Shown: positions 16,818 to 37,777, counted from the stretch's first letter. The stretch is 64,000 nt of DNA from Thermodesulfobacteriota bacterium (GCA_049323655.1 JBMONO010000009.1:62540-126539), one strand, 5' to 3'. Translations and numbers: made by a program. Notes: a model not told the origin generated them from the letters alone.

Positions 16818-16876
16818 TGACACAAAATGATCATTCACCGAACGAACAAAAAACACTCGCTCCCGGGCCGCAACAA

Positions 16877-20446: not shown

Positions 20447-21004
20447 ATGACGCTGAAGGCAAGCGACAATCCGCCCTCCTGCTTTCCGGATGATCTTTTC
20501 AGGCGGCCGGCTGCCGATGACGGAACAGTGTGGTGGGTTGCCCGCACCAAAAGCAGACAGGAAAAGGCCTTGGCCTGGGAGCTGCACGCCAAGGGGCTTC
20601 CCTATTATCTGCCTCTGGTGGCAAAGCCCCAGAATTGCCGTGGCAGAATGCGCGCCTCAATCCTGCCTCTTTTTAGCGGATATCTGTTTTTTAAAAGTGA
20701 CCAGCAGGGACGCTATGAGGCCCTGTGCGGCGGCCGCATCGCCCAGATCCTTGAGGTTCAGGATCAGGAAAAAATCACCCGCGAACTGGCAAATCTCAAT
20801 CTGGCAACCCAGGCCAGGGTGAACCTGACCCTCTGCGATTTTGCCAAAGAGGGGCAACGGGTACGCATCATTGCCGGGCCCTTTTCCGGCCTTGAGGGCA
20901 TTGTTCGCAAACAGAAAAATCAGACCCGCCTGATCCTGAATCTTGAGGCGATCAGGCAGGCGGCCACGGTAGATATTGCGCTGGAGCAGGCTCAGCCTAT
21001 TTAA
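20447..21004 (+). CDS. Specialised NusG paralog (RfaH/UpxY-like antiterminator)
   Basis: NGN: WWVARTKSRQEK, YYLPL, PLFSGYLF; KOW: GQRVRIIAGPFSGLEGIV. Confidence 0.9.
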   Translation: MTLKASDNPPSCFPDDLFRRPAADDGTVWWVARTKSRQEKALAWELHAKGLPYYLPLVAKPQNCRGRMRASILPLFSGYLFFKSDQQGRYEALCGGRIAQILEVQDQEKITRELANLNLATQARVNLTLCDFAKEGQRVRIIAGPFSGLEGIVRKQKNQTRLILNLEAIRQAATVDIALEQAQPI

Positions 21005-21840: not shown

Positions 21841-22808
21841 AACTGGTCATCCAGATCCCCTGCTATAACGAAGAGCTTTATCTGTCCAAAACTATTGATG
21901 CCATTCCCGACTCCTTTGCGGGAATCGACCAGGTTGAAATTCTCGTTATCGATGATGGCAGCACAGACCAGACCAGCAGCGTGGCAAGTGACCACGCCAG
22001 ATGTACCACGGTTTCACGACTTGCACCTCATCAGGGATTGGCCACCGCTTTTGCCCGGGGACTGGAGAAAGCCTGCGAAATGGGCGCTGACATTATCGTG
22101 AATACGGATGCTGACAACCAGTACTGCGCAGAAGATATAGCAAAACTGATCGCGCCCATTATCAATGGACAGGCCGATATGGTAGTTGGCTGCCGCCCGA
22201 TTGAGGAAATCAGCTATTTCTCTCCGGCAAAAAAGATTCTCCAGCGTCTAGGCTCGTGCGTTGTCCGCTTTATCACCAACACCCGGGTGCTTGACGCAAC
22301 CAGCGGCTTTCGCGCCTATTCACGGCAGACCGCCAAAAAAATCTTTCTGCATACAAAATTCACCTACACCCTTGAAACCCTTGTCTTTGCGGGCAAGAAA
22401 AATCTTCGGGTCGTCTCGGTCCCCATAAGGGTAAACCCTGTGCGGGTGAGAGAATCACGCCTTTTTTCCACAACCTTCGAATATCTCAAACAGTCTTTGG
22501 CAACTCTCCTGCGCCTCTATCTATTTTATGAACCGCTCAAAAGCTTCACCTATGCGGCGGTTTTAATTGCGACAATAGGATTTGCCTTGCTCCTGTTGGC
22601 CGTCCTCAGCCAGACCCAGCACGCCGCCAAATTGTTCATAAGTTCGCTCTTCTTTCTGTTTCTGGGCGGATCCATATTTTCACTCGGCATCTTGGGCGAT
22701 ATCAACAGTTCTCAGAAACAGCTTCTTGAAGAGGCGTTGGTCAGAATCAAAAATCTGGAAGATGAAATCAAGCGTCCTCCTGCGAATCCCCCCCCCGACA
22801 AACAGTGA
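21837..22808 (+). CDS. GT2 glycosyltransferase, polyprenol-phosphate (DPM synthase-like) type with two C-terminal TM helices
   Basis: IPCYNEE, IDDGSTD, NTDADNQY, DATSGFRAY; two hydrophobic C-terminal segments. Confidence 0.9.
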   Translation: MKLVIQIPCYNEELYLSKTIDAIPDSFAGIDQVEILVIDDGSTDQTSSVASDHARCTTVSRLAPHQGLATAFARGLEKACEMGADIIVNTDADNQYCAEDIAKLIAPIINGQADMVVGCRPIEEISYFSPAKKILQRLGSCVVRFITNTRVLDATSGFRAYSRQTAKKIFLHTKFTYTLETLVFAGKKNLRVVSVPIRVNPVRVRESRLFSTTFEYLKQSLATLLRLYLFYEPLKSFTYAAVLIATIGFALLLLAVLSQTQHAAKLFISSLFFLFLGGSIFSLGILGDINSSQKQLLEEALVRIKNLEDEIKRPPANPPPDKQ

Positions 22809-22834: not shown

Positions 22835-24271
22835 ATGAAAACACTGCTGGTCATTCCAAATATTCAAGGGAAATACTTTAAGCCCGGCCAACCCCACGTG
22901 GGGATCGCCTATCTGGCCGGCGCTCTCGACACCAGAAACGGCTTCCAGACAAAGATCATTGATATGCGGCTTGGTGGGCGTTTTGCCGGGTTGGCCGCTG
23001 CCGTAACAAACTATCAGCCAGATCTTATCGGCATCACGGTTACAACCCTCAACTATCAGGAATCTTACGGACTTATTGCCAAGACCAAAAAACAGTTCCC
23101 CAAGATACCGGTTGTGATCGGCGGGCCCCATGTCACCTCTTTTGCCGCCACAATTCTTGATGAAACCGAGGCTGACTTTGCCATTGTCGGCGAAGGAGAA
23201 GACGCTATTGTCGAACTGGCGACGCAGATCCAGCGGGGAGCGGCAGATTACCATCACATAGCCGGCCTTATCTGGCGGGATGGCAAGACGACCTTCACAA
23301 ACTCCCCCCGAAAACCGCGTATTGACCTTGATTCCTTTGCCTTTCCGCGCTACGAGAAATCACCCCTGGGCAAATATCTGGACAACAAGATCCCCATCCT
23401 TACCTCCCGGGGTTGCCCCGGCCGCTGTGTGTACTGCTCCGTGGCCAGCCTCTTCGGCCGTAACTTCCGGACCAGAACCCCTGAGAATGTTTTCAACGAG
23501 ATATCCTTCTGGCACAAGCGGGGTTATAAATATTACATTATCAATGACGACTGCTTCACAGCAGCCATCCCCCGGGCTGAAAAAATCTGCGATCTGATCA
23601 TCAACCATCAGTTGGATATCCGCTGGGAATGTCGAAATGGCATCCGCATGGACCGTCTTACCCCGGCATTGGCCGCCAAAATGAAGCAGGCCGGCTGCTG
23701 CTTCGTGGCATTCGGCCTGGAGTCGGCTAACCAGCATAATCTCGATGCCATGCGCAAGGGCATTACCATTGCCCAAGCGCATCAGGCAATAAAGATCGTC
23801 AAGGAAGCAGGCATTGATTTCGGCCTTTTTTTCATGATCGGCACCCCGGGTGACACCTTCACCAATTTCCTTGATTCATATAATTTTGCCAAAACAAGCG
23901 GCGCCCAGGAAGTCCGTTTCTATAACGCCCTGCCCTACCCGGGAACTGATTTCTTCAGCTGGGTTGAACAGCACGGACGCTTTCTTTATTCCCCGGACCG
24001 ATACCTTAACAGCCTGGATCGCTGGGATGAGACCCCGGTCTTTGAAACGAACGAGTTTCCCAAAAAAGAGAGAATCAAGGCCTTCCGAATGGGAGAGGAG
24101 TTAGTGATGCGGGCCTTTTTCCGAAAATACTTCGGCAAAATTCTGGTACCGTTCTGCTGGTATGCCTACCGCAACCGCCACCTGCGCGCCCTGTTGCAGG
24201 TCCCTGGGGAAATCATCTGGACACAATTGCGCAAACTGCATCTCAAAAGGAACATGCTTGGCCGCAGCTAA
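22835..24271 (+). CDS. Cobalamin-binding radical SAM enzyme 1
   Basis: GIAYLAG, IGGPHVT, GEGE, TSRGCPGRCVYC, PYPGT. Alternative start GTG 22805. Confidence 0.93.
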   Translation: MKTLLVIPNIQGKYFKPGQPHVGIAYLAGALDTRNGFQTKIIDMRLGGRFAGLAAAVTNYQPDLIGITVTTLNYQESYGLIAKTKKQFPKIPVVIGGPHVTSFAATILDETEADFAIVGEGEDAIVELATQIQRGAADYHHIAGLIWRDGKTTFTNSPRKPRIDLDSFAFPRYEKSPLGKYLDNKIPILTSRGCPGRCVYCSVASLFGRNFRTRTPENVFNEISFWHKRGYKYYIINDDCFTAAIPRAEKICDLIINHQLDIRWECRNGIRMDRLTPALAAKMKQAGCCFVAFGLESANQHNLDAMRKGITIAQAHQAIKIVKEAGIDFGLFFMIGTPGDTFTNFLDSYNFAKTSGAQEVRFYNALPYPGTDFFSWVEQHGRFLYSPDRYLNSLDRWDETPVFETNEFPKKERIKAFRMGEELVMRAFFRKYFGKILVPFCWYAYRNRHLRALLQVPGEIIWTQLRKLHLKRNMLGRS

Positions 24272-25460
24272 AAAAAAATTATTGGTAGCAACATCGACCT
24301 TTCCCCGCTATGCGGGAGATATTGTGCCGGCTCGCTTTGTCCTGCACCTCAGTGAACAGTTCTGTGACCGCTATGACGTCCATGTGCTCGCCCCTCATGA
24401 CCCCAAGGCCTGTTTTGAGGAAAAACTAGGAAAAATCAAGGTGTCCCGCTTTCCCTATTTTTTCCCAACAAACAAACAGGTATTATGCGACGGCCGGGGC
24501 ATTCTCCCCAATATGCGCGCCAGCCTGCTGGGGAAAATGCAGATTCCCGCGCTTCTGCACGCGGAGCACCTTGCCTTGCGCCGGCTGATACAGTCCATCA
24601 AACCCGCCATCATTCACTCACATTGGGCTATCCCCCAGGGTCTTTGCGTATCGCTTGCCACCGGGAAAGACATCCCGCAAATTCTGACCATCCACTCCTC
24701 TGACCTGCACACCCTGAGGCGGCTGCCGGGCGGGGAGAAAATGCTTCGTTACATCGCAAACCGTTGCCATACAATTTTTCTGGTGAGTTCCTACCTGCGC
24801 GACCTTTTTCTGCAAATGGTGCCAAATCCACCCTGCAGCTTGCAGGTGTTGCCCATGGGTGTTGACCAAATATTCTACCGTCGCAAAATTATAACTGCTT
24901 CCCCTAAATGGCAGCTGTTGTATATAGGAAAGATGATAGAGGTTAAAGGTATCCGGTATCTCCTGGAGGCCATGGATAAAATCAGGAGAATCCTGCCCAG
25001 ATTACGGCTTACCCTGCTCGGCGACGGTGAGGATCGGCCAAAACTGGAAGCCATGGCCAGAGACTTTGATCCTGAAGGGAAAACCATCTCATTCGCCGGC
25101 CAGATTGCCCAGTCGAGATTGCCTGATTATCTTGCGGCGGCAGACGGACTGATCGTTCCCTCCATCGTCACCACACGACAGGAGACCGAAGGGATGCCCA
25201 CCGTCATCCTCGAAGCGCTTGCCTCAGGCACCCCTGTTCTCGCCTCCAGAATCGGCGGCCTGGCCGATACCATTTTCGAAGGCGTCAACGGACTTTTTTT
25301 CGAACACTCAAATCCTGATGATCTTGCCGCCAAAATCAACACATTCTACCAGCAGAAACTCTGGTCCACCATGCCTGCCGAGGCAGGCAGTTCCGCCAGG
25401 AAATATGCATGGCCGGAAATCGGCAGGCAATACCTGGAGGTTTTCAATAACGCATGTTGA
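24258..25460 (+). CDS. GT4 glycosyltransferase
   Basis: HSHWAIPQG, IGKMIEVKG, EGMPTVILEALASG; TTG 24258 chosen for AAGGA RBS. Confidence 0.9.
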   Translation: MAAAKKKLLVATSTFPRYAGDIVPARFVLHLSEQFCDRYDVHVLAPHDPKACFEEKLGKIKVSRFPYFFPTNKQVLCDGRGILPNMRASLLGKMQIPALLHAEHLALRRLIQSIKPAIIHSHWAIPQGLCVSLATGKDIPQILTIHSSDLHTLRRLPGGEKMLRYIANRCHTIFLVSSYLRDLFLQMVPNPPCSLQVLPMGVDQIFYRRKIITASPKWQLLYIGKMIEVKGIRYLLEAMDKIRRILPRLRLTLLGDGEDRPKLEAMARDFDPEGKTISFAGQIAQSRLPDYLAAADGLIVPSIVTTRQETEGMPTVILEALASGTPVLASRIGGLADTIFEGVNGLFFEHSNPDDLAAKINTFYQQKLWSTMPAEAGSSARKYAWPEIGRQYLEVFNNAC

Positions 25461-26272
25461 TCCAGCGAGTTTATAGACATCTGGACGGGATCGTCCGTCT
25501 TGCTGCGGGTTGGTCCCGCTGGCGGCGTTTGGAACGCAAAATTTACTGCTGCCTCACCGTGGATCTGGATGAGCACGGTTACCGGAATGCCTTTGCCAGG
25601 GGTTGCCCGTTCCTGCTCGATCTCTTTGCCGCCAATAACCTGCAGGGGGCAATCACCTGGTTTTACAACTGCAACGAGAAAGAGTTGGCCGAGCACCCTT
25701 TTCTCCTGGGCGAAATAAAGAAGCGCCACGATGAAGTCGCCTTGCACTATCATCTGGAAAATCTCCCGGCCTCCACAGACACGGCGGAGATATATACCAG
25801 AATACGTCAGGGGAAAGCCTATGTCGAATCTCTGCTGGATCAGGAAATCATAGGATTCCGGTCCGGTCGTTTCCTGCGGACTTCACGGATATTGCAGGCC
25901 CTCGGAGAAAACGGACTGAAATACGATTCCTCCTTTACCTACGGCAGACAATTTACCATCCATGGCCACCGGATGGATGATCGGGAAATTACCGGCAACC
26001 AGAGCGTATTCAGGCTGCCGAGCGGGTTACTGGAATTCCCGGTCTGGGAACCATTCCCCGCGCCTAGGCAGATATCGCTTACTGGGCCGCCGTATTTTAT
26101 CACCAATCTGGTCCACCCCTTTAATTTTGTCTGGCAGGGCAAAACTAACCATCCTGTCCAACACTATTACAAGACCATTGTTGAAATCTTCCGACAAATC
26201 CCCGCTATAGAATTCATCACCCTGGGTCAGGCTTGCCACATTTGGAATCAACAGAGTTCAAATCCATCATAG
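25454..26272 (+). CDS. Polysaccharide deacetylase family protein
   Basis: LTVDLDE, TWF, EVALH, GFRSG, YDSS, LLEFPV, VHP. Confidence 0.75.
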   Translation: MLIQRVYRHLDGIVRLAAGWSRWRRLERKIYCCLTVDLDEHGYRNAFARGCPFLLDLFAANNLQGAITWFYNCNEKELAEHPFLLGEIKKRHDEVALHYHLENLPASTDTAEIYTRIRQGKAYVESLLDQEIIGFRSGRFLRTSRILQALGENGLKYDSSFTYGRQFTIHGHRMDDREITGNQSVFRLPSGLLEFPVWEPFPAPRQISLTGPPYFITNLVHPFNFVWQGKTNHPVQHYYKTIVEIFRQIPAIEFITLGQACHIWNQQSSNPS

Positions 26273-27150
26273 CGTCGCCGGAGGCACGGCACCTCCTCAG
26301 CAACCTGTTTGTCCGTTATGGTCGCGCTTATCATCGCGCGTCAACAGGAATCAAGGCGGATCAGATCACCTCACCGTGGGATGACAGGTTTCTTGCGGCA
26401 AAACTGATTGGCAGAGACAGAAACGGTTTTCATCTCACTGACCTTGGGAAAACCATCGGCTATGGCCTGCTGGAATCCGCCAACCTTGAAAACCGCCAAC
26501 AACGGGAAAGCGCCAATCCTGTCGATATACCACTGTCTCCCAGTGCATTATTTGCAGGAAAGAATGTGGTGGATATTGGCTGCGGTACAGGATGCTACAC
26601 GGCGCTGGCCCGCAGACTCGGAGCAAAGACCGCCATCGGTATGGACGTCCAGCAGCCGCTCCTGCAGACAGCTCGTCTCCTGCATAGGGACTCGGGTGCC
26701 CTTTTCGTCAGCGGCTCGGCAGAACATCTCCCACTCCCAGATACAATGGCGGATCTGGTAATTCTTCGGGGAATATTGGCCTACGTGGATAACCACAAAC
26801 TCCTGCAGGAAGTCTCCCGCATTAGCAGGCCGGGATGTCAGATCATGCTCACCACCCAGGGATGCGGTTATTTTGCCCAGGCGCTGCTGAGTGCGGGCCG
26901 TCACCTGCATGTATTCCATATGGCCTACCTCTCCCTGGTGCTTTTAAACGGCCTTTTTTTTACCCTGAGTGGCAGACGTCTTCCCCTCAGAATAAAAAAA
27001 TATTTTTCCAGGGAGCTCATAAGTATTTTTCATACCAAAGCCAGCCTATTTCGTCTTGTTAAGGACTATGGCTATACCGTGTCCTCCTGTCGAAGCGAAA
27101 AAATTTTTGGCATGAACTCACAATTCTGCGTCATGGCCAACCGCCAATGA
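26233..27150 (+). CDS. Class I SAM-dependent methyltransferase
   Basis: VVDIGCGTG, AEHLPLPD..DLV, RISRPG. Start uncertain. Confidence 0.85.
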   Translation: MPHLESTEFKSIIASPEARHLLSNLFVRYGRAYHRASTGIKADQITSPWDDRFLAAKLIGRDRNGFHLTDLGKTIGYGLLESANLENRQQRESANPVDIPLSPSALFAGKNVVDIGCGTGCYTALARRLGAKTAIGMDVQQPLLQTARLLHRDSGALFVSGSAEHLPLPDTMADLVILRGILAYVDNHKLLQEVSRISRPGCQIMLTTQGCGYFAQALLSAGRHLHVFHMAYLSLVLLNGLFFTLSGRRLPLRIKKYFSRELISIFHTKASLFRLVKDYGYTVSSCRSEKIFGMNSQFCVMANRQ

Positions 27151-28541
27151 AAATTCTTTTTGTCTATCTAAACGCAACACACCAGGAGTACATCCCGCTC
27201 GGGGTGGCGTATCTTTCCGCGGCCTTGAAAAAAGCAGGCCACCAAACCTGCCTCCATGACGGTACCTTCATCAGCATTAAAAAACTCCCCCAAACCGTCA
27301 CCACAGAGCAGCCGGACCTCATCGCCTTTTCCATCCGCAGCCCGGAAGCACCCCAGGCCAGGAAAGCGATTGCCACCCTAAAAAGGCATACGGACATTCC
27401 GATAATCGTCGGTGGGGTCCATCCAACGGTTGCACCCATTGAGGTTCTGAACTGGGAGGGTGTTGCAGCGGTCTGTGTCGGTGAAGGAGAAGAGGCATTT
27501 GTGCATCTCTGCGACAATTGGGGTAGGGAGACGGTCTATGCAACTCCCAATTTTTATTTTTTGCGCGACGGTAAACTGGTCAAAAACCCCTGCCTTCTTC
27601 CTCAACGCATCGATGATCTTCCCTTGCCGGACAGGGAACTCTTCAATATCGACAAATATCTCGAGGCAAGGGACGGGCGTCTGGATATCATTTCCGGACG
27701 CGGCTGTCCCTTTAACTGCACTTACTGCATCAACCATGTTGTTAAAAATATTATTTCTCACAAAACCGACTATATCAGGGTGCGCAAACCTGAAAACATC
27801 ATCCGCGAAATCCAGAAAGTCGCCGAAGGTCATGAGGTACGAAGTCTGGAGTTCGTCAACGACATCTTCACCCTCTCCGAGTCCTGGCTTGCTGAATTCA
27901 CCACCTTATACCGCAGGGATATCCACCTGCCCTTTGTCTGCAATGCCAGGGTGGAATTAATGACGCCGAAAATTGCCGCTCTCCTGAAAGAGGCAGGTTG
28001 CACCGAGGTACAGATGGGAATCGAGTCCGGCTCTGAAAGAATCAGAAGAGAGGTGCTGGGTCGGCGGATGAGTAACGCTGTCATCAAAGAGGCCTTTGCC
28101 ACCGTCCGGGCAGCGGGCATGAAGACCTATGCCTTCAACATGGTGGGGTTGCCGGAAGAAGGTTTTGCCGAACTCAGGGCCAGCATCGAGCTGAACCGCC
28201 ACATCATGGCTGACGCCATGCAGGTCTCAGTCTTTCAGCCCTATCCGGGGACGAAACTCCGCGAGCTTGCCATAGCCAGAGGATGGATATCCACCCGCCG
28301 ACTTCCTCTCTCCCACAAATCCTTTTCCATCATGCGATATCCCGGATGGGGAGCCTGGCGTATCCGACTGGCGAAACTAGGATTTCGCTTCTTCAGTCTG
28401 CTGCCTGATCATCCCCGCAGAGCGATGTCCGCCCTGTTTGTCGACATACTGGCCGACTATTACAACATGATCAGAGGGATATTCAGTCCGAAACTAAAAA
28501 AATATCTCTACCGTTTTTATGCTCACACCGGGAAAAATTAA
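27147..28541 (+). CDS. Cobalamin-binding radical SAM enzyme 2
   Basis: PLGVAYLSA, VGGVHPT, GEGE, GRGCPFNCTYC, GIESGS, PYPGT. Confidence 0.93.
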   Translation: MKILFVYLNATHQEYIPLGVAYLSAALKKAGHQTCLHDGTFISIKKLPQTVTTEQPDLIAFSIRSPEAPQARKAIATLKRHTDIPIIVGGVHPTVAPIEVLNWEGVAAVCVGEGEEAFVHLCDNWGRETVYATPNFYFLRDGKLVKNPCLLPQRIDDLPLPDRELFNIDKYLEARDGRLDIISGRGCPFNCTYCINHVVKNIISHKTDYIRVRKPENIIREIQKVAEGHEVRSLEFVNDIFTLSESWLAEFTTLYRRDIHLPFVCNARVELMTPKIAALLKEAGCTEVQMGIESGSERIRREVLGRRMSNAVIKEAFATVRAAGMKTYAFNMVGLPEEGFAELRASIELNRHIMADAMQVSVFQPYPGTKLRELAIARGWISTRRLPLSHKSFSIMRYPGWGAWRIRLAKLGFRFFSLLPDHPRRAMSALFVDILADYYNMIRGIFSPKLKKYLYRFYAHTGKN

Positions 28542-29727
28542 GATCGGTTGTATTTTTGACAACTTCTACCCGAAACTCGGGGGCGGGCCTGTCCAGAATC
28601 AAATGCTTGTGGAGCATCTGAGTAGGTCCCCTGATTTTTCGCCAATGGTTTTCCCCCTCATGTGGGCCATGGGTCTCAACACATCGCAATTCAACTACCC
28701 TGTGCAGCCGATCAGAGTCTACAATGAGTTTCCCAGTGACTTTAACCGCATAACCCCGGCCATTCTCGCCGATCGCCTGTACAATATCCTGACCAGCCGG
28801 AAAATCGGCCATATGCTGAAAAAAGTGGATCTGATCCACACCGATCTCCACTCTTCAGCACTGCTCGGCGCGTATTACAGGAAAAAACTTAACAAGAAAC
28901 TGGTGATCAGGTTCGGCGGCAATATATTCCGCCAACAGGAACGACGTGATGAGATTGAAGACAAATACCACTGGTTCAAGGGGCTTTTCTTTCAACTTCC
29001 GGCTCGCTACGCTTTCCAGGCCGCGGATGCCATTATCGTCAACGGCCGGGACCTCAAGGACGAACTGACCCGCAACGGCATCGCAGAACAAAAAATACAT
29101 ATTGTCCCGGTCGGGCTCGCCATTGATATATTCCATCCACCTCCTGCCAGCGAAGAGATTCTGCCTGTTGCCGCCAACCAGACATTGCGCCTGCTTTTCT
29201 TCGGCCGTATAACCGAGGCAAACGGCCCTCTGCAATTCCTAGAAGTAGTCAGGATGCTCCAGGCAAACCTGTCCAAACCTGTCACCGCTTCGGTCATAGG
29301 GGATGGCCCTATGCTGGAGCTGATGCAGCAAACCGCCCGCAGGCAAGGCCTGCCGGTGATGTTTCTTCCTTCACTGAATCATCACCAGCTTGCCGGCCAG
29401 ATCCGCAAACATCATTTCTGCGTCTTTCCCTTCCGAAAAATCGGCGGGATTTCCAGCGTGGTGACCGAATCCATGGCGTGCGGCAGAATAGTTTTTGCTA
29501 CAGAGGCCGGTGATCTGCGGGCAATCATCGATGACTCCTGCAACGGTTTTCTGGTTCCGTCTGACTCCCCGCAAAGGATGGCTGACAAGATCAGCATTAT
29601 CGCCCGAAACAGGGAAATGCAGCAAGCCGTCATGGTTAACGCGGCCGAGACAGCCCGGAAAAATTGCAGTTGGAGCCAGATCACAGCGAAATACACCACT
29701 GTTTACAGAAAAATCCTTCTCATGTAA
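28519..29727 (+). CDS. GT4 glycosyltransferase
   Basis: FFGRI, GDGP, VVTESMACG, NGFLV. Confidence 0.85.
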   Translation: MLTPGKIKIGCIFDNFYPKLGGGPVQNQMLVEHLSRSPDFSPMVFPLMWAMGLNTSQFNYPVQPIRVYNEFPSDFNRITPAILADRLYNILTSRKIGHMLKKVDLIHTDLHSSALLGAYYRKKLNKKLVIRFGGNIFRQQERRDEIEDKYHWFKGLFFQLPARYAFQAADAIIVNGRDLKDELTRNGIAEQKIHIVPVGLAIDIFHPPPASEEILPVAANQTLRLLFFGRITEANGPLQFLEVVRMLQANLSKPVTASVIGDGPMLELMQQTARRQGLPVMFLPSLNHHQLAGQIRKHHFCVFPFRKIGGISSVVTESMACGRIVFATEAGDLRAIIDDSCNGFLVPSDSPQRMADKISIIARNREMQQAVMVNAAETARKNCSWSQITAKYTTVYRKILLM

Positions 29728-29745
29728 CCCGTCGGAAACAGAGCA

Positions 29746-31197
29746 ATGACAAATCAGCATATTACCCAGGCAATCCTGTGGGGATTAAACGATGACACCA
29801 GGCGCTATCTGGAACTGCTCGCCAAGGCCGGTATCACCTGCCGCTGCATCGTCGATACCTATAACCATTCGCCCGGTTATCACGAGGTTCCGGTTCTTTC
29901 CGCCGAGCAATACAAACAAGAGGCCAATCTGTTATCCCACATTCCCGTGCTTGTCATTGCCCGCAGCAAAAGCGGAGAGAGCAGGTTCGCCGAGGTAACC
30001 GATTACATAAAAAACTTCCTTGACCTGAAAGAGGTCCGCATTCTCCATCCGGTTTGCCTGGCCGACTATATCGACGTCACCTTCCCGCACAGAGTTTACA
30101 TTTGCGGCTTTCCCGGCTCGGGAAACATTTTCGTCAGGGCGCTGACGGAAAAACTCCTTACCGCATCAGAACAGCCCCCTCATCTTGCAACAACAAATCA
30201 TTCCCTGTTACATCATCTGGCCAGAGAGCATCATGAACTGCTGATTAAGACCCTTAACGCTCTCTTTCTCAGCCATGATCTCACGGTCAAACACGAATCC
30301 ATGACCCATGCGGATACCTTTGTCTTTTCCGGGGCGAAGAAAAATGAATTCGTCCGCCTGTTCAATATCAAATCAAAGCGCTATCTGTGTGAAGACATCT
30401 GCAGCCGGCATGATTTTTTTGAAGATCACATACTCGACACGTTCCAGAGGCTGCAATACAAGATAATCGCGCCAATCAGAAACCCTCTTGACACCTTGAT
30501 ATCAAATGCTTTCAAGTATGAATATACGACCATCTTCATTGACAGAGACGCCATTCCGGACGCAAGCAAGAGCGGGTTTAAACAGGCCCTTGGCCACGCC
30601 AGACTATCCAGCTACAAATGGTTCCATGATCTGGCCCAATCGCTGCACAGGTTCTATACTAATCTTCTGCAGGCCTCCGGTGTCTATTTAATCAAATATG
30701 AAGATCTCATTTCCCAACCGTACCCTGAATTGAAAAATCTGGCCTCCTTTCTAGGGCAGCAAATATCGGATGAGACGATTGAAAATCTCTGGCAGACGAC
30801 AGCATTCAGACCTCTCAGCAATCAAGCCCACTACTTCCAGCCCGGCATGGATAAGTGGCGAAAATATCTTAACAACAAGCATATAGAAATTTTGGCGGAA
30901 CTTGGTTTTGCAAACTTGATGAAAGAGTTGGGCTATCAATTCCCGACTCAGCCTCTGGAGCAGCCTGAACCCGGTCCGCCTGAAACACATACGCGGCTTG
31001 ACTTATTCCTCTCCCTGCACGACCACATTCAACACATCAATTTCAGGAAAAACATCTCCTTTCCCGATGACCAGTTGACATACTGCATGGAAATGCGGAC
31101 AGGCCTTGGACTGTTGACCAATCAACCCCACTACGCCACGCTCCTTAACGCAATAGAACAGTCGAGTTACATCCAATCCATTTTCACAGGAATATAA
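29746..31197 (+). CDS. Sulfotransferase-like protein with N-terminal Rossmann-like module
   Basis: ICGFPGSGNIF (PAPS 5'-loop-like), IRNPLDTLIS (3'-phosphate motif), IKYEDL, KWRKYL. Confidence 0.7.
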   Translation: MTNQHITQAILWGLNDDTRRYLELLAKAGITCRCIVDTYNHSPGYHEVPVLSAEQYKQEANLLSHIPVLVIARSKSGESRFAEVTDYIKNFLDLKEVRILHPVCLADYIDVTFPHRVYICGFPGSGNIFVRALTEKLLTASEQPPHLATTNHSLLHHLAREHHELLIKTLNALFLSHDLTVKHESMTHADTFVFSGAKKNEFVRLFNIKSKRYLCEDICSRHDFFEDHILDTFQRLQYKIIAPIRNPLDTLISNAFKYEYTTIFIDRDAIPDASKSGFKQALGHARLSSYKWFHDLAQSLHRFYTNLLQASGVYLIKYEDLISQPYPELKNLASFLGQQISDETIENLWQTTAFRPLSNQAHYFQPGMDKWRKYLNNKHIEILAELGFANLMKELGYQFPTQPLEQPEPGPPETHTRLDLFLSLHDHIQHINFRKNISFPDDQLTYCMEMRTGLGLLTNQPHYATLLNAIEQSSYIQSIFTGI

Positions 31198-31216
31198 ACT
31201 TCGGTGGGAGAAGCAC

Positions 31217-32422
31217 TTGCACCCGGAACTCAACATACTCTGTTTTTGTGCCTACCCTTTTCCGGCGCACCCCGGGGAAACCCTTTTCTGCGGGGGACAA
31301 TACCACCCCTTCTACCTTACCTGGGCACTTGCGGAACTCGGCGTCAATCTTCATGTCATAGCCCGCCAACAGCCGGATCAACCAGCGCAACAACGCATCA
31401 AAGGCCTCACTGTTCATCGCTACCCTTCCACATACCACTGGGGTGGACACCGCCGGGGTATCACCTTCAGCGGCAAACGATTACGCCTGGTCATGCAACA
31501 ATGCAGCAGACAAAAATTCTCCTGGGCAATTACCTTTTCCCCCCTGACGCGGGAACTTGACCTCCTTCAGCAGCATGAAATTTCTCTCTGTTATATGGTG
31601 CCGGGGGTAAACCGCGGCTTTTTAAAGAATCTTGGCAACCGTCCCCTGGATATTCTCCGGAAAATGGCCATCCGCCATATCAGCTTGCCTCTGTTTAAGA
31701 AAAATATCGCGGCAGCAAAACTCATTTTCGCCAACTGCGCAAGTGATGCAAATCTGTTAACCCGTCATTTTCAGCCCCCCTGCCCTGTACAGATCAACAG
31801 AAACGGGGTCAACACGCAACTCTACAGGCCAATCCCCAAGGAAGAGAGAACCAATACCTTTCTCTGTGTCGGCCGTTTTGCCCGGGAGAAAGGATTTCAT
31901 GATACACTACACGCTGCCGTAACCTGCTGCAGAGAAAATCCCAGCATCAGATTCCACTTTATCGGCTTTATTGACGACAGAAACTATTTCAACAAAATAA
32001 AAAAACAAATCGCCGACCTGGCACTGAAAAACCATATAGATCTCGACCCTAATGTACCGGAAGAGAAAATGCCGTCATACTTCGCCAGGGCCCGGGCTCT
32101 TATCTGTTACTCCAATGGCTACGATCCACTGCCGAGCGTCATATACCAGGCCATGGCATGCGGACTGCCGGTCATTTCCACAGACTGGCCATCACGATCC
32201 GAGGTCATTGAACATGAGATAAATGGACTTCTCGTGCCGCCTGGCCGGATCGACCTTTTGATCCAGGCCATCAGGCGCCTTTCCGATTATGAAGCCCATG
32301 CATTCGCAATGGGAGAAAATGCCAGGAAAACCGTCTGCGAGAAACACGATTTTACCAAGTTGGCCCAAGATATATTAGCACATCTCCATCGAGCCGGACA
32401 TGCAGGTCCCGTTTTATCTTAA
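31217..32422 (+). CDS. GT4 glycosyltransferase
   Basis: NGVNT, VGRFAREKG, QAMACGLPVI, NGLLVPP. Confidence 0.88.
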   Translation: MHPELNILCFCAYPFPAHPGETLFCGGQYHPFYLTWALAELGVNLHVIARQQPDQPAQQRIKGLTVHRYPSTYHWGGHRRGITFSGKRLRLVMQQCSRQKFSWAITFSPLTRELDLLQQHEISLCYMVPGVNRGFLKNLGNRPLDILRKMAIRHISLPLFKKNIAAAKLIFANCASDANLLTRHFQPPCPVQINRNGVNTQLYRPIPKEERTNTFLCVGRFAREKGFHDTLHAAVTCCRENPSIRFHFIGFIDDRNYFNKIKKQIADLALKNHIDLDPNVPEEKMPSYFARARALICYSNGYDPLPSVIYQAMACGLPVISTDWPSRSEVIEHEINGLLVPPGRIDLLIQAIRRLSDYEAHAFAMGENARKTVCEKHDFTKLAQDILAHLHRAGHAGPVLS

Positions 32423-33527
32423 TCAGATTCCCGCCCCTGCTGCCGTTGTCATCCTGGACTGCCTGGCTGATGCGGTACACCAGGCCAGGAATCGTTACCC
32501 GGACCTCAAGGCCCTTATCCTGTACGGGAGTTTCTGCGCCGGAGATTTCGCCATGCGTCAGACTGGCGTCACCACCTGGCGATTCATCAGCGATTTCGAT
32601 CTGGTCATGGTGCTTCCCCATTTACAGGTGCTCCGCTATCGACTGGCCGCTCCCAAAACCTCCTGGAAACTCTGCCATGGTGCAGTGGCGGACGTGGCGC
32701 TGGAAAGCGGCTTCAGCCTCCGACGCAGTATTCGCACCATGGAGTATTACAACATCTGCCATGGCGGCCTCCTCCTCTGGGGGAGAGATGATATGTTGCC
32801 AGGGAAAGACAGTGCGCAGCCACTCAGCCAAGGGCAGGGGCTGCGGCTGCTGGCCAACAGATTGTGGGGCATTCTCGAAGCCCTGGATGGGCCCGAAGAG
32901 ATGCTGAATCATCGGCTGACAAAAGGTCTGCTGGCCTGTCTCCACAGTGATTGTCTCCTGCAGGGGATATACGAGCCTTCCGCTGTCCGTCTCCTCGCGC
33001 TCTATCGAGCAAAAAAGGAAAGCGACCTCCCGCAAGGACTGCCCCCTCCACTGTTGGACAAAATCAACGACGCCCTGCTGGGAAACCTGGGGAAAAAACC
33101 CGCCGTAAATGCACACCAGTTAACGGCTACCCTGCGGCTTCTCCTGCACTACATGGCACTCTCCTTCCAGAAAATTACGGCCACCGCGGTGCTCTGGGAT
33201 CATTTCCTCCCCCGGCTCGTCCGCATGCCCTGGCAGGGATGGCCTTTTACTGCCAATATGCTCTCCTTTCTCTACCGTTCCGTTGCCCAGCAGAGACGAA
33301 TTCCTCCCCTGTCCCTGCATCCTCTGTTCGCACCGGTTTGTCTGCGAATCTGGGCAGGATGGATTACCCTGGCCCTGGCGGTTCTTGACAAATCGCCACA
33401 GCGACTGGAACTGTACAATCGGCTGATGGCGTGGTTTCCCGGCTACACGCCAGCCACTTCAATCAAAACAGCCATCCTTGCCAACCCCTCATGGCAAAGG
33501 CAGGTTCCGGTCACTTCCCGCATCTAG
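32400..33527 (+). CDS. Pol-beta-superfamily nucleotidyltransferase-like protein
   Basis: LILYGSF..GD..SDFDLVMV (hGS + DxD). Confidence 0.6.
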   Translation: MQVPFYLNQIPAPAAVVILDCLADAVHQARNRYPDLKALILYGSFCAGDFAMRQTGVTTWRFISDFDLVMVLPHLQVLRYRLAAPKTSWKLCHGAVADVALESGFSLRRSIRTMEYYNICHGGLLLWGRDDMLPGKDSAQPLSQGQGLRLLANRLWGILEALDGPEEMLNHRLTKGLLACLHSDCLLQGIYEPSAVRLLALYRAKKESDLPQGLPPPLLDKINDALLGNLGKKPAVNAHQLTATLRLLLHYMALSFQKITATAVLWDHFLPRLVRMPWQGWPFTANMLSFLYRSVAQQRRIPPLSLHPLFAPVCLRIWAGWITLALAVLDKSPQRLELYNRLMAWFPGYTPATSIKTAILANPSWQRQVPVTSRI

Positions 33528-33530
33528 GCC

Positions 33531-34979
33531 ATGCCATCACTCAAGATCCTGCTCATTCGCCACCACCAGCAGCCAGCCCTCGCTGACGGCTCATACAGGA
33601 GACACGCTTTTCAGCTTATCCCCCTCGGCCTGGCATATCTCGCAGCCACCCTGAGGGAATCAGGGATGACGGTCACGGTATGCGACAGCCTGGTCTCCAT
33701 CGAGACCAAAAAACAGTTTCTCTCTATGGTGCAGCAGAGCGACCCCGACCTGATAGGCATCTCGGCCATGACCGACGGTCTGCCCGGGGCAATGGAGGCG
33801 GCGGCACTGATCAAGAAAATACGGCCGACCACGCCGATTGTCCTGGGAGGCGCCCATATGGCGACATTTCCGGAACAAACCCTGCAGGAAGGCGCTTTCG
33901 ATCTGGGAATCATTGGCGAAGGGGAACGCACCTTTGCAGAGCTTGCCACGGCGTTGGCGGAAAAACGGCAGAGCCTGTCAGAATTACCAGGCCTTGCCAT
34001 CAAAGAAAAAACCGGCGAAATCCGTTGCACCCGGCCGCGGGAAAGGATCAGCGATCTGGATCAGCTGGCCCACCCGGCCCGCGACCTCTTCCCGAACCAT
34101 CGCTATCGCACCCTGCTGGGTCACAACCCGGTCACCTACATCCTTACCTCCCGGGGCTGCCCGTATCACTGCACCTTCTGTGATCACAGTCTCTGGGGAA
34201 ATAAGGTGACCTTTCACTCACCACGATGGATCCTGGAAGAGATTCAGCATTGCCAGGCCCATGGGGCGCGAGAAATCTATATTTACGACGAGACCTTCAC
34301 CCTGCAGCGGGAACGGGTTCTTCATCTCTGTGAACTCATCCTGCAGCATCGCATCAGGGCTTCATTTGTGATCAGTACCCGTGCCGATCATGTTGACTTC
34401 GAAATGTTAAAACTGCTGAAACAGGCAGGATGCCGCCAGATTCGCTTCGGCGTTGAAACGGGCAGCCCTGTCATGCTGAAAAAAATCAGAAAGGGACTGA
34501 GTCATACTCAGATTCAAAGGGCCTTCCAGGATTGCCGCACCCTCGGCATCGAGACATTCGGCTATTTCATGCTGGGCCTGCCGGATGAAACACCCGAGCA
34601 AATGCTGGAAACCATCCGCACCGCTATCAGCCTTGATCCGGATTGGGTAAATTTCAATCTTCTCAGTGTCAAGCCCGGCACCGCTATCTACCGGGAACTG
34701 ACCAGGCAATCCGGCAGAGCACCCACCAACTGGCTGAAAGGCTTTCTGGACGGCAAAAGCAGCGAAGATGACAGTTATATCTTACCGGCCGGCAAGAATC
34801 TGGCGGACATGAACAGAATGATCCATACCGCCTATCGCAGATTTTACTTCCGTCCCCGTTTTTTTCTCAAACGGTGCAGGGATCTCAGACATCCTGCGCT
34901 GTTATATCATTACCTGACAAGCATAATCGGAACCTACAGCCATCTTTTCGCCGGGAAGTTCCGCAATATTCACCAATAA
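33531..34979 (+). CDS. Cobalamin-binding radical SAM enzyme 3
   Basis: PLGLAYLAA, LGGAHMA, GEGE, TSRGCPYHCTFC, GVETGS, RRFYFRP. Confidence 0.93.
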   Translation: MPSLKILLIRHHQQPALADGSYRRHAFQLIPLGLAYLAATLRESGMTVTVCDSLVSIETKKQFLSMVQQSDPDLIGISAMTDGLPGAMEAAALIKKIRPTTPIVLGGAHMATFPEQTLQEGAFDLGIIGEGERTFAELATALAEKRQSLSELPGLAIKEKTGEIRCTRPRERISDLDQLAHPARDLFPNHRYRTLLGHNPVTYILTSRGCPYHCTFCDHSLWGNKVTFHSPRWILEEIQHCQAHGAREIYIYDETFTLQRERVLHLCELILQHRIRASFVISTRADHVDFEMLKLLKQAGCRQIRFGVETGSPVMLKKIRKGLSHTQIQRAFQDCRTLGIETFGYFMLGLPDETPEQMLETIRTAISLDPDWVNFNLLSVKPGTAIYRELTRQSGRAPTNWLKGFLDGKSSEDDSYILPAGKNLADMNRMIHTAYRRFYFRPRFFLKRCRDLRHPALLYHYLTSIIGTYSHLFAGKFRNIHQ

Positions 34980-35008
34980 ACCCTCCTGCGGGCACCAGAC
35001 GGTTTCTT

Positions 35009-36580
35009 ATGGAACAGAAAACACCTGCCAGAAAAATCATCTTAATCCAGCCGACCTTTTCCGAACATGAATACGCCATGGACGAGCTGACTCCGCCCAT
35101 GGCGCTGCTCCACCTTGCCGGATCACTGCTGAGCGACGGTTTTGAAACTGTTATCATAAATCAGCAGATTGACCGCAACTGGGAGCAACTTCTGGCTGGA
35201 GAGCTGCAACATAATCCCGTCTGCGTGGGCATCACCTCCCTCACCGGCCTGCAGATCTACTTCGCCCTCAAGGCGGCAAAGCAGGTAAAGCTAACAAGTT
35301 CCGTGCCGGTGGTGTGGGGCGGTATACACGCAACCATGGTTCCGGAACACGTCATCGCCAGCCGTTATATCGATTATGTGCTGACCGGAGAATGCGAGAA
35401 CAGTTTCCCGCAACTTGTTCGGGCCATTTTCTCCGGGAATGTCCCGCACGACGTACCCGGTATCGTCTACAGGGATGAATCCGGCGCCGTGCGGCAAACA
35501 CCCCCTGGTCCTCCGCCGGATCTTGCCCTGCTGCCACCGGTGCCCTTTCACCTTGATAGGCTATTCACGGAACAGCCCCATCCCCGTCTGACCATTATCA
35601 CCAGCCGGGGCTGTCCGCACCGTTGCTCTTTCTGTTTTAACAACTTTTATTACCACCGGAAGTGGCGCGCCATGGAAAGCAAGGAGGTACTGGCGCTCAT
35701 CGACCATTACCTGAAAGAATACGGCCCGGGCAGCTCCTACAGGAAAGAACCGGTCATCAGCTTTGGCACCGAATCAAACTTTTTTGTCTCAGCCAAACGC
35801 GTCGATGAAATCTGTCAAGGCATTATCGACCGGGGGATTCCTGTTACCTGGGAAGGTGTCAGCTGCCGCGTCGATTATCACCGACAAATCAAACCCTCAA
35901 CCCTGAAAAAACTTCATTCTTTAGGTTGCGATCGTCTGCTCACAGGAGTTGAGGGCGGCAACCAGGAAATGTTTGACCGCATCAAAAAGGACATCAAGCT
36001 TGCCGACGTCTTCGCCATGGGGGAGAAATTAATCGACAGCGGCATTAAATTGCATACATCATTCATCATGGGGCTGCCTGGTGAAACCCATGAAGACAGA
36101 CTGGCAATCATCGATTTAATCAACGAGCTGAGGCACAGATTCGGCGCCATGCATACATACGGCATATTCATCTATGCGCCCTTTCCAGGCACAGAACTCT
36201 GGGACAAAGGTGTGGAGCTCGGATTCACCCCACCCACCCGCCTCACGCAATGGGTAAAAGTTGAACAGCGCTTTCCCCAGCGGGTTCCCTGGCTGACAGA
36301 AAGTGACCGCCAGGAAATAAAGCGATTCAGGGAGATTGCCCTGGTAGGCGGGGTTTACGGAGACAATTCATTGGCAGGGAAAATTTACTCCCTATTCGGC
36401 AAATGGGGCAGCTTCCGGTTCCGCCATCACCTGTTCGGGGCTGTCCCGGAATTAAAGCTGCAGACCTTGCTTAACGACATCTACAACCTGGCCACGCGCG
36501 GCAGAAGAAGAAAGTATCAAACTTTTCACCATGATCCGCTGTACGAAAGAATCAATACCTTGCTGACGGAACTGGAATGA
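35009..36580 (+). CDS. Cobalamin-binding radical SAM enzyme 4
   Basis: PPMALLHLAG, WGGIHAT, TSRGCPHRCSFC, PFPGT. Confidence 0.92.
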   Translation: MEQKTPARKIILIQPTFSEHEYAMDELTPPMALLHLAGSLLSDGFETVIINQQIDRNWEQLLAGELQHNPVCVGITSLTGLQIYFALKAAKQVKLTSSVPVVWGGIHATMVPEHVIASRYIDYVLTGECENSFPQLVRAIFSGNVPHDVPGIVYRDESGAVRQTPPGPPPDLALLPPVPFHLDRLFTEQPHPRLTIITSRGCPHRCSFCFNNFYYHRKWRAMESKEVLALIDHYLKEYGPGSSYRKEPVISFGTESNFFVSAKRVDEICQGIIDRGIPVTWEGVSCRVDYHRQIKPSTLKKLHSLGCDRLLTGVEGGNQEMFDRIKKDIKLADVFAMGEKLIDSGIKLHTSFIMGLPGETHEDRLAIIDLINELRHRFGAMHTYGIFIYAPFPGTELWDKGVELGFTPPTRLTQWVKVEQRFPQRVPWLTESDRQEIKRFREIALVGGVYGDNSLAGKIYSLFGKWGSFRFRHHLFGAVPELKLQTLLNDIYNLATRGRRRKYQTFHHDPLYERINTLLTELE

Positions 36581-37764
36581 ATGCGCAGACGCCTCTGGTC
36601 ATTCACCTGATCCTGGACGGCTTCGCCAGCGAGTATCTTGCCTATGCCCCCTTTCTGTCTGAAAAAATCGGGGCCGGCAAAGGCCGGCCGATCAAGACTG
36701 TCGCCCCCTTTGGCTCGCGGGGCATGATCTTTACCGGATTCTCCCCCGGCAAAAGCCAGCTTTTTACCGATTTATGGCGGGATCCGGCAGCAAGCCGCTA
36801 CCGGGCTCTGCCAGGCTGGCTACAAAAACCTCATCCACTTCCCGTGGCCGTACGCTTTCTGGTTCGTCTGGCAACCAGAGTAATGAGCGATTACCCCTGC
36901 CCGCTCCTGCCCGGAATACCCGCATCATTTCTGCCGCGATTCGACAAACCGCCCCTCTCTCGTCATGTATCCACGTTCAGAGGTGACGGCCCGGTACCGA
37001 GTCTTATCGAACGACTGCAAAAGCAACACGTTCCCTATCAGTTCTTCGGGCCACCGACAAAGGGGTTCTGGCAAAAGCCCTTAATGCAGATAATCAAAAA
37101 AATAAAACCAGAGAGCAGATATCTGTGTGTACATGTCATCACCCCTGACCTGACTGGTCACCAATACGGACCGGACAGCCCGGAAATCCGGGACCTGACT
37201 GCCAGAATAGACCTGGAAACTGAACAACTCTGCGCCAGACTATACGAACTGGGGCGCGAGGCAGTTCTGCTCATCCATTCAGATCATGGCATGAGCAGGG
37301 TGCACACCGAAATTAATTTCTGGCAGGAGATCAGCAAATGGCCGCTGACCGTGGGGATCGACTTTGATTTTTTCCTGGATTCCACCATGGCGCGATTCTG
37401 GCTGTTAAATCCAGCCAAAGAAAACATCTTACAAAAAGGCATTGCCTCATTAGCTCCAGCAGGGCATCTGCTGTCAGACCAGGAGCGACAGGCCGCCGGG
37501 CTCCACGGACTTGATGCCCGTTACGGCGAGTATCTTGTCGCTGTTGAAGAAGGCACGGTCATCATGCCAAACTTTTTTCAAACCGCTCCGATAAGAGGCA
37601 TGCATGGCTATATCCGGAGTCAATCCACCGGCATGGTTGCCTGGCACAATTCCTTTGCCGAGGCCGACAGGGATGACATTTCACTGCTGGACATCACGCC
37701 GACAATTTTGAAACTTCTGCATCTTTCCCCGTCCGAGGGAATTGAAGGTACGGCAATTTTCTAA
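36577..37764 (+). CDS. Alkaline phosphatase superfamily protein (nucleotide pyrophosphatase/phosphodiesterase-like)
   Basis: Metal-ligand motifs LILDG, PDLTGH, SDHGM, GMHGY. Confidence 0.8.
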   Translation: MNAQTPLVIHLILDGFASEYLAYAPFLSEKIGAGKGRPIKTVAPFGSRGMIFTGFSPGKSQLFTDLWRDPAASRYRALPGWLQKPHPLPVAVRFLVRLATRVMSDYPCPLLPGIPASFLPRFDKPPLSRHVSTFRGDGPVPSLIERLQKQHVPYQFFGPPTKGFWQKPLMQIIKKIKPESRYLCVHVITPDLTGHQYGPDSPEIRDLTARIDLETEQLCARLYELGREAVLLIHSDHGMSRVHTEINFWQEISKWPLTVGIDFDFFLDSTMARFWLLNPAKENILQKGIASLAPAGHLLSDQERQAAGLHGLDARYGEYLVAVEEGTVIMPNFFQTAPIRGMHGYIRSQSTGMVAWHNSFAEADRDDISLLDITPTILKLLHLSPSEGIEGTAIF

Positions 37765-37777
37765 CCGGGACGACCCA

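Follow-up and report, generated by a model that had tools for sequence, protein, structure and literature searches.

What four divergent radical S-adenosylmethionine (SAM) enzymes with a B12-binding domain are doing among glycosyltransferase (GT) genes is the question raised by a 64,000-nucleotide stretch of DNA from a Thermodesulfobacteriota bacterium (GCA_049323655.1 JBMONO010000009.1:62540-126539). This whole stretch is called the window here, positions are counted from its first letter, and the four genes, named R1 to R4, lie between 22,835 and 36,580. We propose that R1-R4 tailor the sugars of a glycan made by an exchangeable cassette within a flagellin island, probably by cobalamin-dependent C-methylation and with flagellin as the likely acceptor, a proposal that we regard as having an even chance of being correct. 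That R1-R4 are involved in glycan biosynthesis, whatever the acceptor, is very probable.

All four genes are intact open reading frames (ORFs) on the plus strand: R1 (22835-24271, 478 amino acids from its ATG), R2 (27147-28541, 464 amino acids), R3 (33531-34979, 482 amino acids) and R4 (35009-36580, 523 amino acids from its ATG, or 568 from an alternative GTG start at 34874). The products match the Pfam B12-binding (PF02310, 51-92 bits) and Radical_SAM (71-91 bits) models above the curated cut-offs of 32.1 and 29.5 bits, respectively. Each has one GGxH motif (GGPH96 in R1, GGVH89 in R2, GGAH106 in R3, GGIH104 in R4), followed by GEGE (R1-R3) or GECE (R4), and one CxxxCxxC motif, which reads CPGRCVYC (first cysteine C194), CPFNCTYC (C187), CPYHCTFC (C210) and CPHRCSFC (C202) in R1 to R4. 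After the second barrel strand the proteins read DDCF (R1), NDIF (R2), DETF (R3) and (GT)ESNF (R4). Three GT4 genes, starting at 24162, 28519 and 31217, are interspersed among R1-R4, and a GT2 gene at 21837 lies directly 5' of R1. Pairwise BLASTP identities among R1-R4 are 22-31%. An earlier note, made by a model from the sequence alone, had described these genes as mutually divergent, interleaved with glycosyltransferases, sharing a B12-type N-terminus (GGxH) and CxxxCxxC, and differing in the fourth member, which has GTESNF where the others have DD/ND/DE-x-F; the Pfam matches, the motif scan and the identities bear out this description.

The same note called the four genes paralogs, a term that applies only loosely. 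In a quick tree of 63 rows (ORFs below 340 amino acids excluded, rows trimmed to 470-520 residues, deep forks unresolved), each of R1-R4 falls, with its orthologues in other genomes, into a separate and fully supported deep clade; R2 and R4 each join outside proteins before these two meet. The orthologues of R1, for example, are 91, 71 and 59% identical in the genomes designated G044, G162 and G201. Because of the low mutual identity and the separate clades, R1-R4 are, as judged from their sequences, old subfamilies that were brought together, and recent duplication in place is ruled out. The host genome (G000; 3.56 Mb, 99.6% complete) has nine B12-binding matches in all, four of which are R1-R4, and when nine genes were placed at random, four fell inside 14 kb in 3 of 200,000 trials.

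The four genes are part of a single co-directional run of 29 genes (13326-50400, gaps of at most 98 bases), which is divergent from fliC (10756..13176, minus strand). The 807-amino-acid flagellin has the Pfam Flagellin_N/_C domains, and its central region is 29% Ser+Thr by composition; these residues are likely O-glycosylation sites. Beside the flagellin gene lie genes for a NeuB-type nonulosonic acid synthase fused to an AP-endonuclease-like TIM barrel (17513..19393, plus strand; the sole NeuB found in the genome), a cytidine monophosphate (CMP)-sugar synthase-like cytidylyltransferase (21103..21840, plus strand; CTP_transf_3) and a Maf/PseD-type flagellin glycosyltransferase (46307..48217, plus strand; the sole Maf found in the genome). 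The Maf call rests on PF01973, at 110 bits above its cut-off, while the FlagModPseD model gives 74.5 bits against a cut-off of 670; a search for PDB sequence matches to this protein returned none. By its predicted functions, the gene layout is that of a Maf-dependent flagellin glycosylation island. The earlier note, which proposed a genome-neighbourhood analysis as a check, had missed this setting.

R1-R4 sit in a cassette within this island that is exchanged between genomes of the same genus. The cassette (21103-44116) has a GC content of 52.2%, versus 58.3% for the genome, with the cytidylyltransferase gene at its left end and a gene for a DUF1919 protein (43217..44116, plus strand) at its right end. 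In G004, of the same genus, the frame on the left is the same: fliC (86% identity), a TPR protein with GT41 and C-terminal class I methyltransferase domains (13326..16727; the G004 counterpart in the same place is 72% identical), a MarR-type regulator (16808..17506; a weak match to an EPS-associated MarR model, below cut-off), NeuB, a 318-amino-acid, probably GT-B-like protein (19482..20438) and an UpxY/RfaH-type transcription antiterminator (20447..21004; NusG+KOW, NF033644 at 83.5 bits against a cut-off of 100), all except fliC on the plus strand of the window. The 318-amino-acid protein has no hit itself and is conserved in G004 (86%) and G201 (67%), where the homologue matches Glycos_transf_1 at E 3.5e-5, below cut-off. 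The right frame is also shared, with a GT2 (44038-44958; 78% identity), a sulfotransferase-TPR protein (44955-46310; 55%), Maf, a GDP-mannose 4,6-dehydratase-like (Gmd) enzyme and then a flavin adenine dinucleotide (FAD)-dependent oxidoreductase (the last two at 48214..50400, the right end), again all on the plus strand of the window. Between the two frames G004 has other sugar genes and two SPASM radical SAM genes, with zero B12-type enzymes and no orthologue of the cytidylyltransferase in its island. Variable gene content between near relatives together with a deviant GC content is as expected of Maf-dependent islands. NeuB frames of comparable length (about 630 amino acids) are found in G004, G162 and G201.

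Orthologous cassettes were found in three further genomes. That of G044 is 88-99% identical. In G162, which belongs to another family, identities are mostly 45-77%, and after the cassette come Maf, Gmd, one more (fifth) B12-type enzyme and a flagellin; the orthologues of the second GT4 gene (L023:6476-7769) and of R3 (L023:8952-10491) are each split over two frames there, through assembly errors or decay. The cassette of G201 is 34-67% identical and holds all four R orthologues (50-61%) in unchanged gene order, in mobile-looking surroundings, plus a fifth, fused enzyme. This fusion (L035:6163-8889), at the cassette end, joins a B12-type radical SAM enzyme and a SPASM radical SAM enzyme in 909 amino acids, and similar fusions occur among the relatives of R2.

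The association between the flagellin locus and this enzyme class extends to other members of the family. A close match to this flagellin was found in 18 of the 32 family genomes, and the flanks of 17 fliC genes were read (the gene of G110, at a contig end, was excluded). Maf lies beside fliC in 13 of the 17 flanks, and B12-type radical SAM genes are present in seven: four in G000, four in G044, nine in G032, nine in G128, and one each in G169, G082 and G089 (partial in the last). Those of G032 and G128, nine in each, share only 26-34% identity with whichever of R1-R4 is nearest. Since the flank enzymes are mostly not orthologous to R1-R4, the locus is linked to this enzyme class repeatedly, but through different members of it. 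Other observations count against a tight bond between these enzymes and flagellin. B12-type radical SAM genes are missing from 10 of the 17 flanks (five of them on short contigs), and therefore the enzymes are dispensable for the island. Kinship reduces the positive cases, as G000 and G044 are near-identical, and G000/G044 together with G032/G128/G169 amount to about two independent cases. Lastly, the G201 cassette adjoins a gene for a secreted C25 peptidase and lies about 180 kb from the Maf locus of that genome. In favour of the association, this separate Maf locus also has one B12-type radical SAM gene.

The large islands of G032 (C53, about 69700-110300) and G128 (C53, about 25500-66200; together L015-L017 and L019-L021) are flagellin islands with nine B12-type and about six other radical SAM genes. 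They also hold a carbamoyltransferase, acyltransferases, a transketolase and WbuX/HisH/HisF. One enzyme of the G128 island scores 391.9 bits on the HpnJ model (cut-off 577.6), and G032 has its orthologue, yet no hopanoid cyclase was found in G032. Another scores 263.3 bits on the Sden_1168 P-methyltransferase model.

Evidence for a glycan-related role, which the earlier note had proposed, also comes from beyond the island. The protein P0134 is a homologue of R2 (42% identity over 458 residues) fused to a GT4 domain, and in P0246 and P0247 two B12-type modules are joined with GT-like domains; other relatives are fused to class I methyltransferases or to SPASM enzymes. Two sets of R2-family loci were examined with self-built GT profiles. 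One consists of the 80 best among 557 metagenome loci that the R2 profile matched, of which 44 are at least 9 kb long, and the other of 20 loci picked from the 101 phylum matches listed, of which 18 reach that length. A GT2 or GT4 neighbour is present at 27 of the 44 and 11 of the 18 loci, as compared with 320 of 4908 length-matched random windows (6.5%) taken outside the island from the host genome, a different genome than those of the loci. The GT4 fusion and these neighbours support the glycan-related role. Two or more radical SAM genes of this type occur at 11 of the 44 loci and 9 of the 18, with up to seven in 17 kb. A count that goes against flagellin in particular is that fliC, Maf and NeuB were found at 0 of the 62 loci of at least 9 kb. 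Hence, arrays of these enzymes are common in glycan loci, and their place in a flagellin island is a local feature. The locus L152 (G270:C72:1-17000) has seven radical SAM genes of this type and one GT2, and L153 (G454:C72:1-16000) has five and one GT2.

The proposed pathway would run as follows. A CMP-nonulosonate would come from NeuB together with the cytidylyltransferase; in the cytoplasm, where Maf glycosylation is described as taking place (PMC4065374), its sugar would then be transferred by Maf to Ser/Thr residues of FliC. The GT2 and GT4 enzymes would then extend the first sugar to an oligosaccharide, as in the Aeromonas group II islands, described as GT-rich loci in which a first sugar is extended to a chain (PMC7874193). 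The radical SAM enzymes would each act on another unactivated carbon of the sugars, removing a hydrogen by means of a 5'-deoxyadenosyl radical and taking the methyl group from methylcobalamin, as for GenD1, GenK and MoeK5. The class I methyltransferases, the deacetylase-like protein, AsnB, the sulfotransferases and a nucleotidyltransferase/NPP pair may add O- and N-methyl, amide, sulfate and phosphate-type groups. A strain-specific, heavily branched surface glycan would be the likely product. A wider generalisation is offered tentatively, as it is somewhat more likely to be wrong than right: anaerobes may employ batteries of B12-type radical SAM enzymes that can be exchanged and combined to remodel the carbon skeletons of flagellin glycans. 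Under this equally tentative extension, C-methyl branches, ring contraction and deoxygenation would all be produced, and, within this one family, islands with four, five or nine different such enzymes would replace one another at one locus. If true, it would mean radical B12 chemistry on a protein glycan and sugars not yet described.

Which chemistry R1-R4 carry out is best approached through the cobalamin pocket. All four proteins keep the motifs G/A-x-S/T, GG and GE, the pocket set given for class B radical SAM enzymes (PMC9204698), and DxHxxG is found in none of them (base-off, His-off). The N-terminal domain of R3 aligns with those of TsrM, CysS, OxsB and TokK, and cobS is present in the genome. 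From these features we infer that R1-R4 probably use cobalamin. Predicted structural models of R4 and R2 (mean predicted local distance difference test scores 93.9 and 93.2) match the folds of MgmA/QCMT, TsrM, OxsB, CysS, TokK and AprD4 at 14-22% identity. No close characterised relative was found: R1-R4 reach the curated cut-off of none of the NCBIfam equivalogs HpnJ, HpnR, BchE, PhpK, Sden_1168, AprD4, TIGR04295 and ladderane, falling far below them, and are 16-22% identical to solved B12-type structures. The expectation of the earlier note that the chemistry is likely uncharacterised is in keeping with this. As the default reading of the comparisons, R1-R4 probably act mainly by C-methylation of sugars.

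Motif details separate R1-R4 from individual known enzymes. R2 has an arginine at the position of TsrM Arg69 (A60-x-S62-x-R64), which is shared by 28 of 100 R2 relatives and lacking in R1, R3 and R4; it reads NDI at the GGE position, as opposed to DSE in TsrM, so it lacks the cluster-binding glutamate of TsrM, and the TsrM-type signature is absent. R4 has ESNF at the GGE position, where TokK has D-A-N and TsrM D-S-E (PMC9204698). Among 100 aligned relatives of R4, this site reads DDNF in 28, DDNV in 21, DSNF in 19 and ESNF in 5. ESNF is thus, on this alignment, a conservative D-to-E change common to R4 and its four closest relatives, and a mild variant of the family. The distinct motif pointed out in the earlier note is present, and its value as a sign of special chemistry is weakened by this family distribution; as a unique catalytic switch it is rejected. 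It is possible that ESNF matters for the chemistry, and R4 also has EGGN in place of the usual ESGS.

A rather doubtful alternative that applies whatever the acceptor is that most of R1-R4 rearrange sugars, either as AprD4-like, cobalamin-free diol dehydratases or by ring contraction of the kind attributed to HpnJ and calditol synthase (Cds). Several results speak for it and against methylation. Among PDB sequences R3 is matched best by AprD4, the R2 family profile matches AprD4 at E 5e-38 versus 2e-23 for MgmA, and structurally the R2 model is tied between AprD4 (6FD2; Z 30.4, root-mean-square deviation 4.0, 411 residues) and MgmA (Z 30.5, 3.0, 387 residues). The tryptophan motifs of the TokK/CysS type (A-x-S-x-Y-x-W and CxxxCxxC-x-W) are absent from all four proteins. 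The best NCBIfam score, 192.8 bits, is that of R3 on the ring-contraction model HpnJ, on which R1-R4 score 99-193 bits against a cut-off of 577.6; for HpnJ and Cds, contraction of sugar rings is the proposed reaction (PMC13459092). Since AprD4 has the same fold and is described as binding no cobalamin (PMC12931638), the B12-type fold is no guarantee of cobalamin binding. However, AprD4 matches the barrel only (from residue 152-154), whereas alignments to the cobalamin-binding TsrM, OxsB, CysS and TokK extend over the N-terminal domain, and the pocket motifs are kept in all four proteins. AprD4 is paired with a reductase, AprD3, and no partner of this kind adjoins any of R1-R4. Most characterised members of the family are reported to be methylases (PMC13459092).

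The other alternatives concern the product. For flagellin as the acceptor of the cassette glycan we see the chances as equally divided, and the cassette may also serve a lipid-carrier route; the combined claim of a flagellin acceptor and mainly methylating chemistry stands at the same midpoint. In three of the four genomes that carry it, the cassette lies between UpxY and maf, beside flagellin, and in G004 it is exchanged against a plain nonulosonate cassette, which also favours flagellin. It is unlikely, though it deserves weight, that the same enzymes serve another acceptor, in that a sugar is placed on polyprenyl phosphate by the GT2 (21837), is passed to a GT-C-like protein (39639) and ends up on lipopolysaccharide, a glycolipid or an envelope protein, with the island as a docking site. 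Candidate parts of lipid-carrier systems, which, unlike Maf, glycosylate outside the cytoplasm, are present in the cassette: the AglJ/PpgS-like GT2 (21837..22808, plus strand; AglJ model 90.8 bits, cut-off 325) has two C-terminal hydrophobic helices and is a predicted polyprenyl-phosphate glycosyltransferase, and the 566-amino-acid membrane protein (39639..41339, plus strand; at least six hydrophobic segments) is ArnT/PMT (GT-C)-like by embedding only, its Atlas features being 0.98 similar to ArnT/PMT look-alikes, with one cluster that is 98% PMT_2. Three-component extracytoplasmic glycosylation by a GT2, a flippase and a GT-C is described as an established route (PMC11127046). In G201 the cassette, along with MarR and UpxY and with both GT2 genes and the membrane protein, lies apart from Maf and flagellin, and R2-family loci lie near GTs and not near flagellar genes. 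On the other side, the GT-C identity is unproven: the membrane protein and its three full-length relatives have no Pfam or PDB sequence match, and an acidic residue present in the distant homologue P0255 is missing from the first loop of the membrane protein. No GtrA flippase was found in the G000 or G201 genomes, and flippase, polymerase and ABC exporter families have no match among the 31 ORFs scanned, MATE/Wzx families elsewhere in the genome not having been searched for. Among homologues of the GT2 (14 of 17 matches), a B12-type enzyme is nearby at 1 of 14 loci, and a fixed GT2-radical SAM module is rejected on that count.

It is quite improbable that the cassette makes a free or lipid-anchored glycoside metabolite of the moenomycin or aminoglycoside kind in place of a surface structure. 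The parts list is similar, with GTs, a deacetylase-like protein, B12-type enzymes, an amidotransferase and a nucleotidyltransferase-like protein, and GenD1, GenK and MoeK5 act in such pathways according to PMC4340712 and PMC9204698. Nevertheless, the cassette is located between UpxY and maf and is exchanged in G004 against an ordinary nonulosonate cassette, and the ORFs scanned include no exporter or resistance-type transporter. Least probable of all, and in our view very improbable, is that R1-R4 happen to lie among GT genes as cargo with no tie to them, or as lipid modifiers (for hopanoids, ladderanes or phosphonate P-methylation). Weak matches to the HpnJ, BchE, ladderane and PhpK models and the absence of a GT2/GT4 match by our profiles at 17 of the 44 and 7 of the 18 R2-family loci are in its favour; against it, the gene order with GTs is kept at 50-70% identity, and fusions to GTs exist. 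A hopanoid glycolipid is unlikely because no squalene-hopene cyclase was found in the 99.6% complete host genome, and hopanoid tailoring is rejected on the same ground; PF13243 has no match in G000, G004, G032 and G162 and one in G201. The interpretation in the earlier note, a surface glycan or glycolipid, is supported in part. Phosphonate P- or C-methylation of the Fom3/PhpK kind, raised by the cytidylyltransferase, is rejected as well, as there is no phosphoenolpyruvate (PEP) mutase-type gene in the island. The one PEP_mutase-family match of the genome lies elsewhere and has the motif EDQxxxKRCGH, presumably of the isocitrate-lyase type, so that the match looks like a lyase.

The proposed flagellin-glycan pathway has precedents in parts. 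Maf-dependent flagellin islands of Aeromonas (group II), Geobacillus, Clostridium and Campylobacter are described, like the present one, as variable, lower in GC and located beside fliC, with Maf, a nonulosonate synthase, a CMP-transferase, many GTs and methyl or acyl tailoring genes (PMC7874193, PMC5109656). What sets the present island apart is a set of four B12-type radical SAM genes, together with a membrane GT2 and a gene of GT-C-like type; in the main text of the island papers PMC5109656, PMC13317340 and PMC7874193 the word "radical" is absent. GenD1 and GenK, which methylate C-4'' and C-6' of gentamicin sugars (PMC4340712), and MoeK5, reported to C-methylate in the moenomycin pathway (PMC9204698, PMC8992657), likewise combine a B12-binding domain and a radical SAM barrel in GT-rich sugar pathways. 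They differ in that they make secreted antibiotics, in pathways with one or two such enzymes, and the likeness is one of described domain architecture. AprD4, the apramycin 1,2-diol dehydratase, is similar to R2 in two-domain architecture and size and acts on an amino sugar; it differs in its reported lack of cobalamin binding (PMC12931638), in an identity of 19-20% and in the NF033070 scores of R1-R4 (54-99 bits, cut-off 500). HpnJ, which acts in the formation of the hopanoid cyclitol ether and is the top model of R3, and Cds are radical SAM enzymes for which contraction of a lipid-borne sugar ring has been proposed (PMC13459092), and from which R1-R4 differ by their low scores on the HpnJ model and by a host genome in which no hopanoid cyclase was found. 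MgmA/QCMT, TsrM, TokK, CysS and OxsB share with R4 and R2 the fold and the GG, GE and downstream motifs; they differ in their low identity and in their substrates, which are proteins, tryptophan, carbapenems, aryl ethers and nucleotides. TIGR04295 (B12_rSAM_oligo) is a curated B12-binding radical SAM family whose model name points to oligosaccharide loci, presumably cassettes of that kind; R1-R4 score 41-87 bits (cut-off 400) and are not members.

Class B enzymes that act on sugars are already known, as are flagellin glycosylation islands; the combination of the two is without a published account that we could find. Titles, abstract starts and term counts gave no report that places B12-type radical SAM enzymes in a flagellin island or a surface-glycan locus, while subscription papers and supplements may have such annotations. 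In a 2026 review of the family (PMC12931638), "glycan", "sugar" and "polysaccharide" are absent from the main text. The sugar-acting cobalamin-dependent radical SAM enzymes that we found in print belong to antibiotic pathways or act on lipid head groups. The surprise is limited, as the island type is known and the pattern widespread. A flagellin island is unusually testable, for it offers an abundant and shearable acceptor, a same-genus genome with a swapped cassette as a natural control, and four soluble enzymes. Among the candidates scored, R2 has at least 1101 relatives at E 1e-40 and R4 has 303 at E 1e-30. Working out what R1-R4 do would assign functions to very large subfamilies, so far uncharacterised, whose members turn up repeatedly in the glycan loci of uncultured bacteria and archaea, and it could yield catalysts for regioselective methylation of sugar C-H bonds.

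The remaining cassette genes are all on the plus strand. Downstream of R1 lie the first GT4 gene (24162..25460; the listed ORF overlaps R1 by 110 bases, and the true start is probably about 30-35 codons downstream), a gene for a weakly matched polysaccharide-deacetylase-like protein (25454..26272; TIGR03006 at E 1.9e-6, below cut-off, with weak Pfam matches) and one for a class I SAM methyltransferase (26233..27150). R2 and R3 are separated by the second GT4 gene (28519..29727), a sulfotransferase-domain gene (29746..31197; Sulfotransfer_1 at E 2.5e-15), the third GT4 gene (31217..32422) and a gene for a 375-amino-acid protein with a predicted Pol-beta nucleotidyltransferase fold (32400..33527), which has no Pfam hit and was assigned by Atlas look-alikes. 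R4 is followed by a gene for an alkaline-phosphatase-superfamily (NPP/Phosphodiest) enzyme (36577..37764). One Atlas cluster of 813-amino-acid proteins fuses the nucleotidyltransferase fold to Phosphodiest (TM score by query 0.81), and the pair around R3-R4 suggests a joint, undescribed step of sugar nucleotidylation or phosphotransfer. Next come genes for an AsnB-type glutamine amidotransferase (37742..39628; TIGR01536 at 402.5 bits, cut-off 267.1), the GT-C-like membrane protein and two class I SAM methyltransferases (41347-42420 and 42476-43204).

Several further observations concern the surroundings. The methyltransferase domain of the TPR-GT41 protein, the product of the first island gene, is CmoB/TIGR04290-like, and the protein is a second candidate flagellin glycosyltransferase beside Maf. 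Residues of about 370-690 of FliC form a variable region that consists of imperfect repeats rich in Ser, Thr, Ala and Gly and has a weak match of the hexapeptide (beta-helix) kind. The FAD enzyme (49261-50400) is L-aspartate-oxidase-like, and one that is 28% identical lies between the B12-type gene and the GT/Maf genes in G201 (L039:4433-8708). No exact copy was found of the octamer that we take to be the RfaH ops-type motif, and Rfam has no match in the window. After fliC come fliD, fliS, fliT and flaG (7297-10507), and directly after flaG an ATP sulfurylase gene (5765-7042), with an ORF of the same length in that place in G032, G128 and G044; the enzyme probably belongs to central sulfur metabolism and could also feed the two sulfotransferases of the island. 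An ordinary chemotaxis operon (CheA with two Hpt domains, CheW, CheR, CheD, HDOD, CheB) occupies 54950-62359. A 733-amino-acid protein with a C-terminal FGE-sulfatase domain is encoded at 1705-3906. The host is probably a sulfur-cycling anaerobe.

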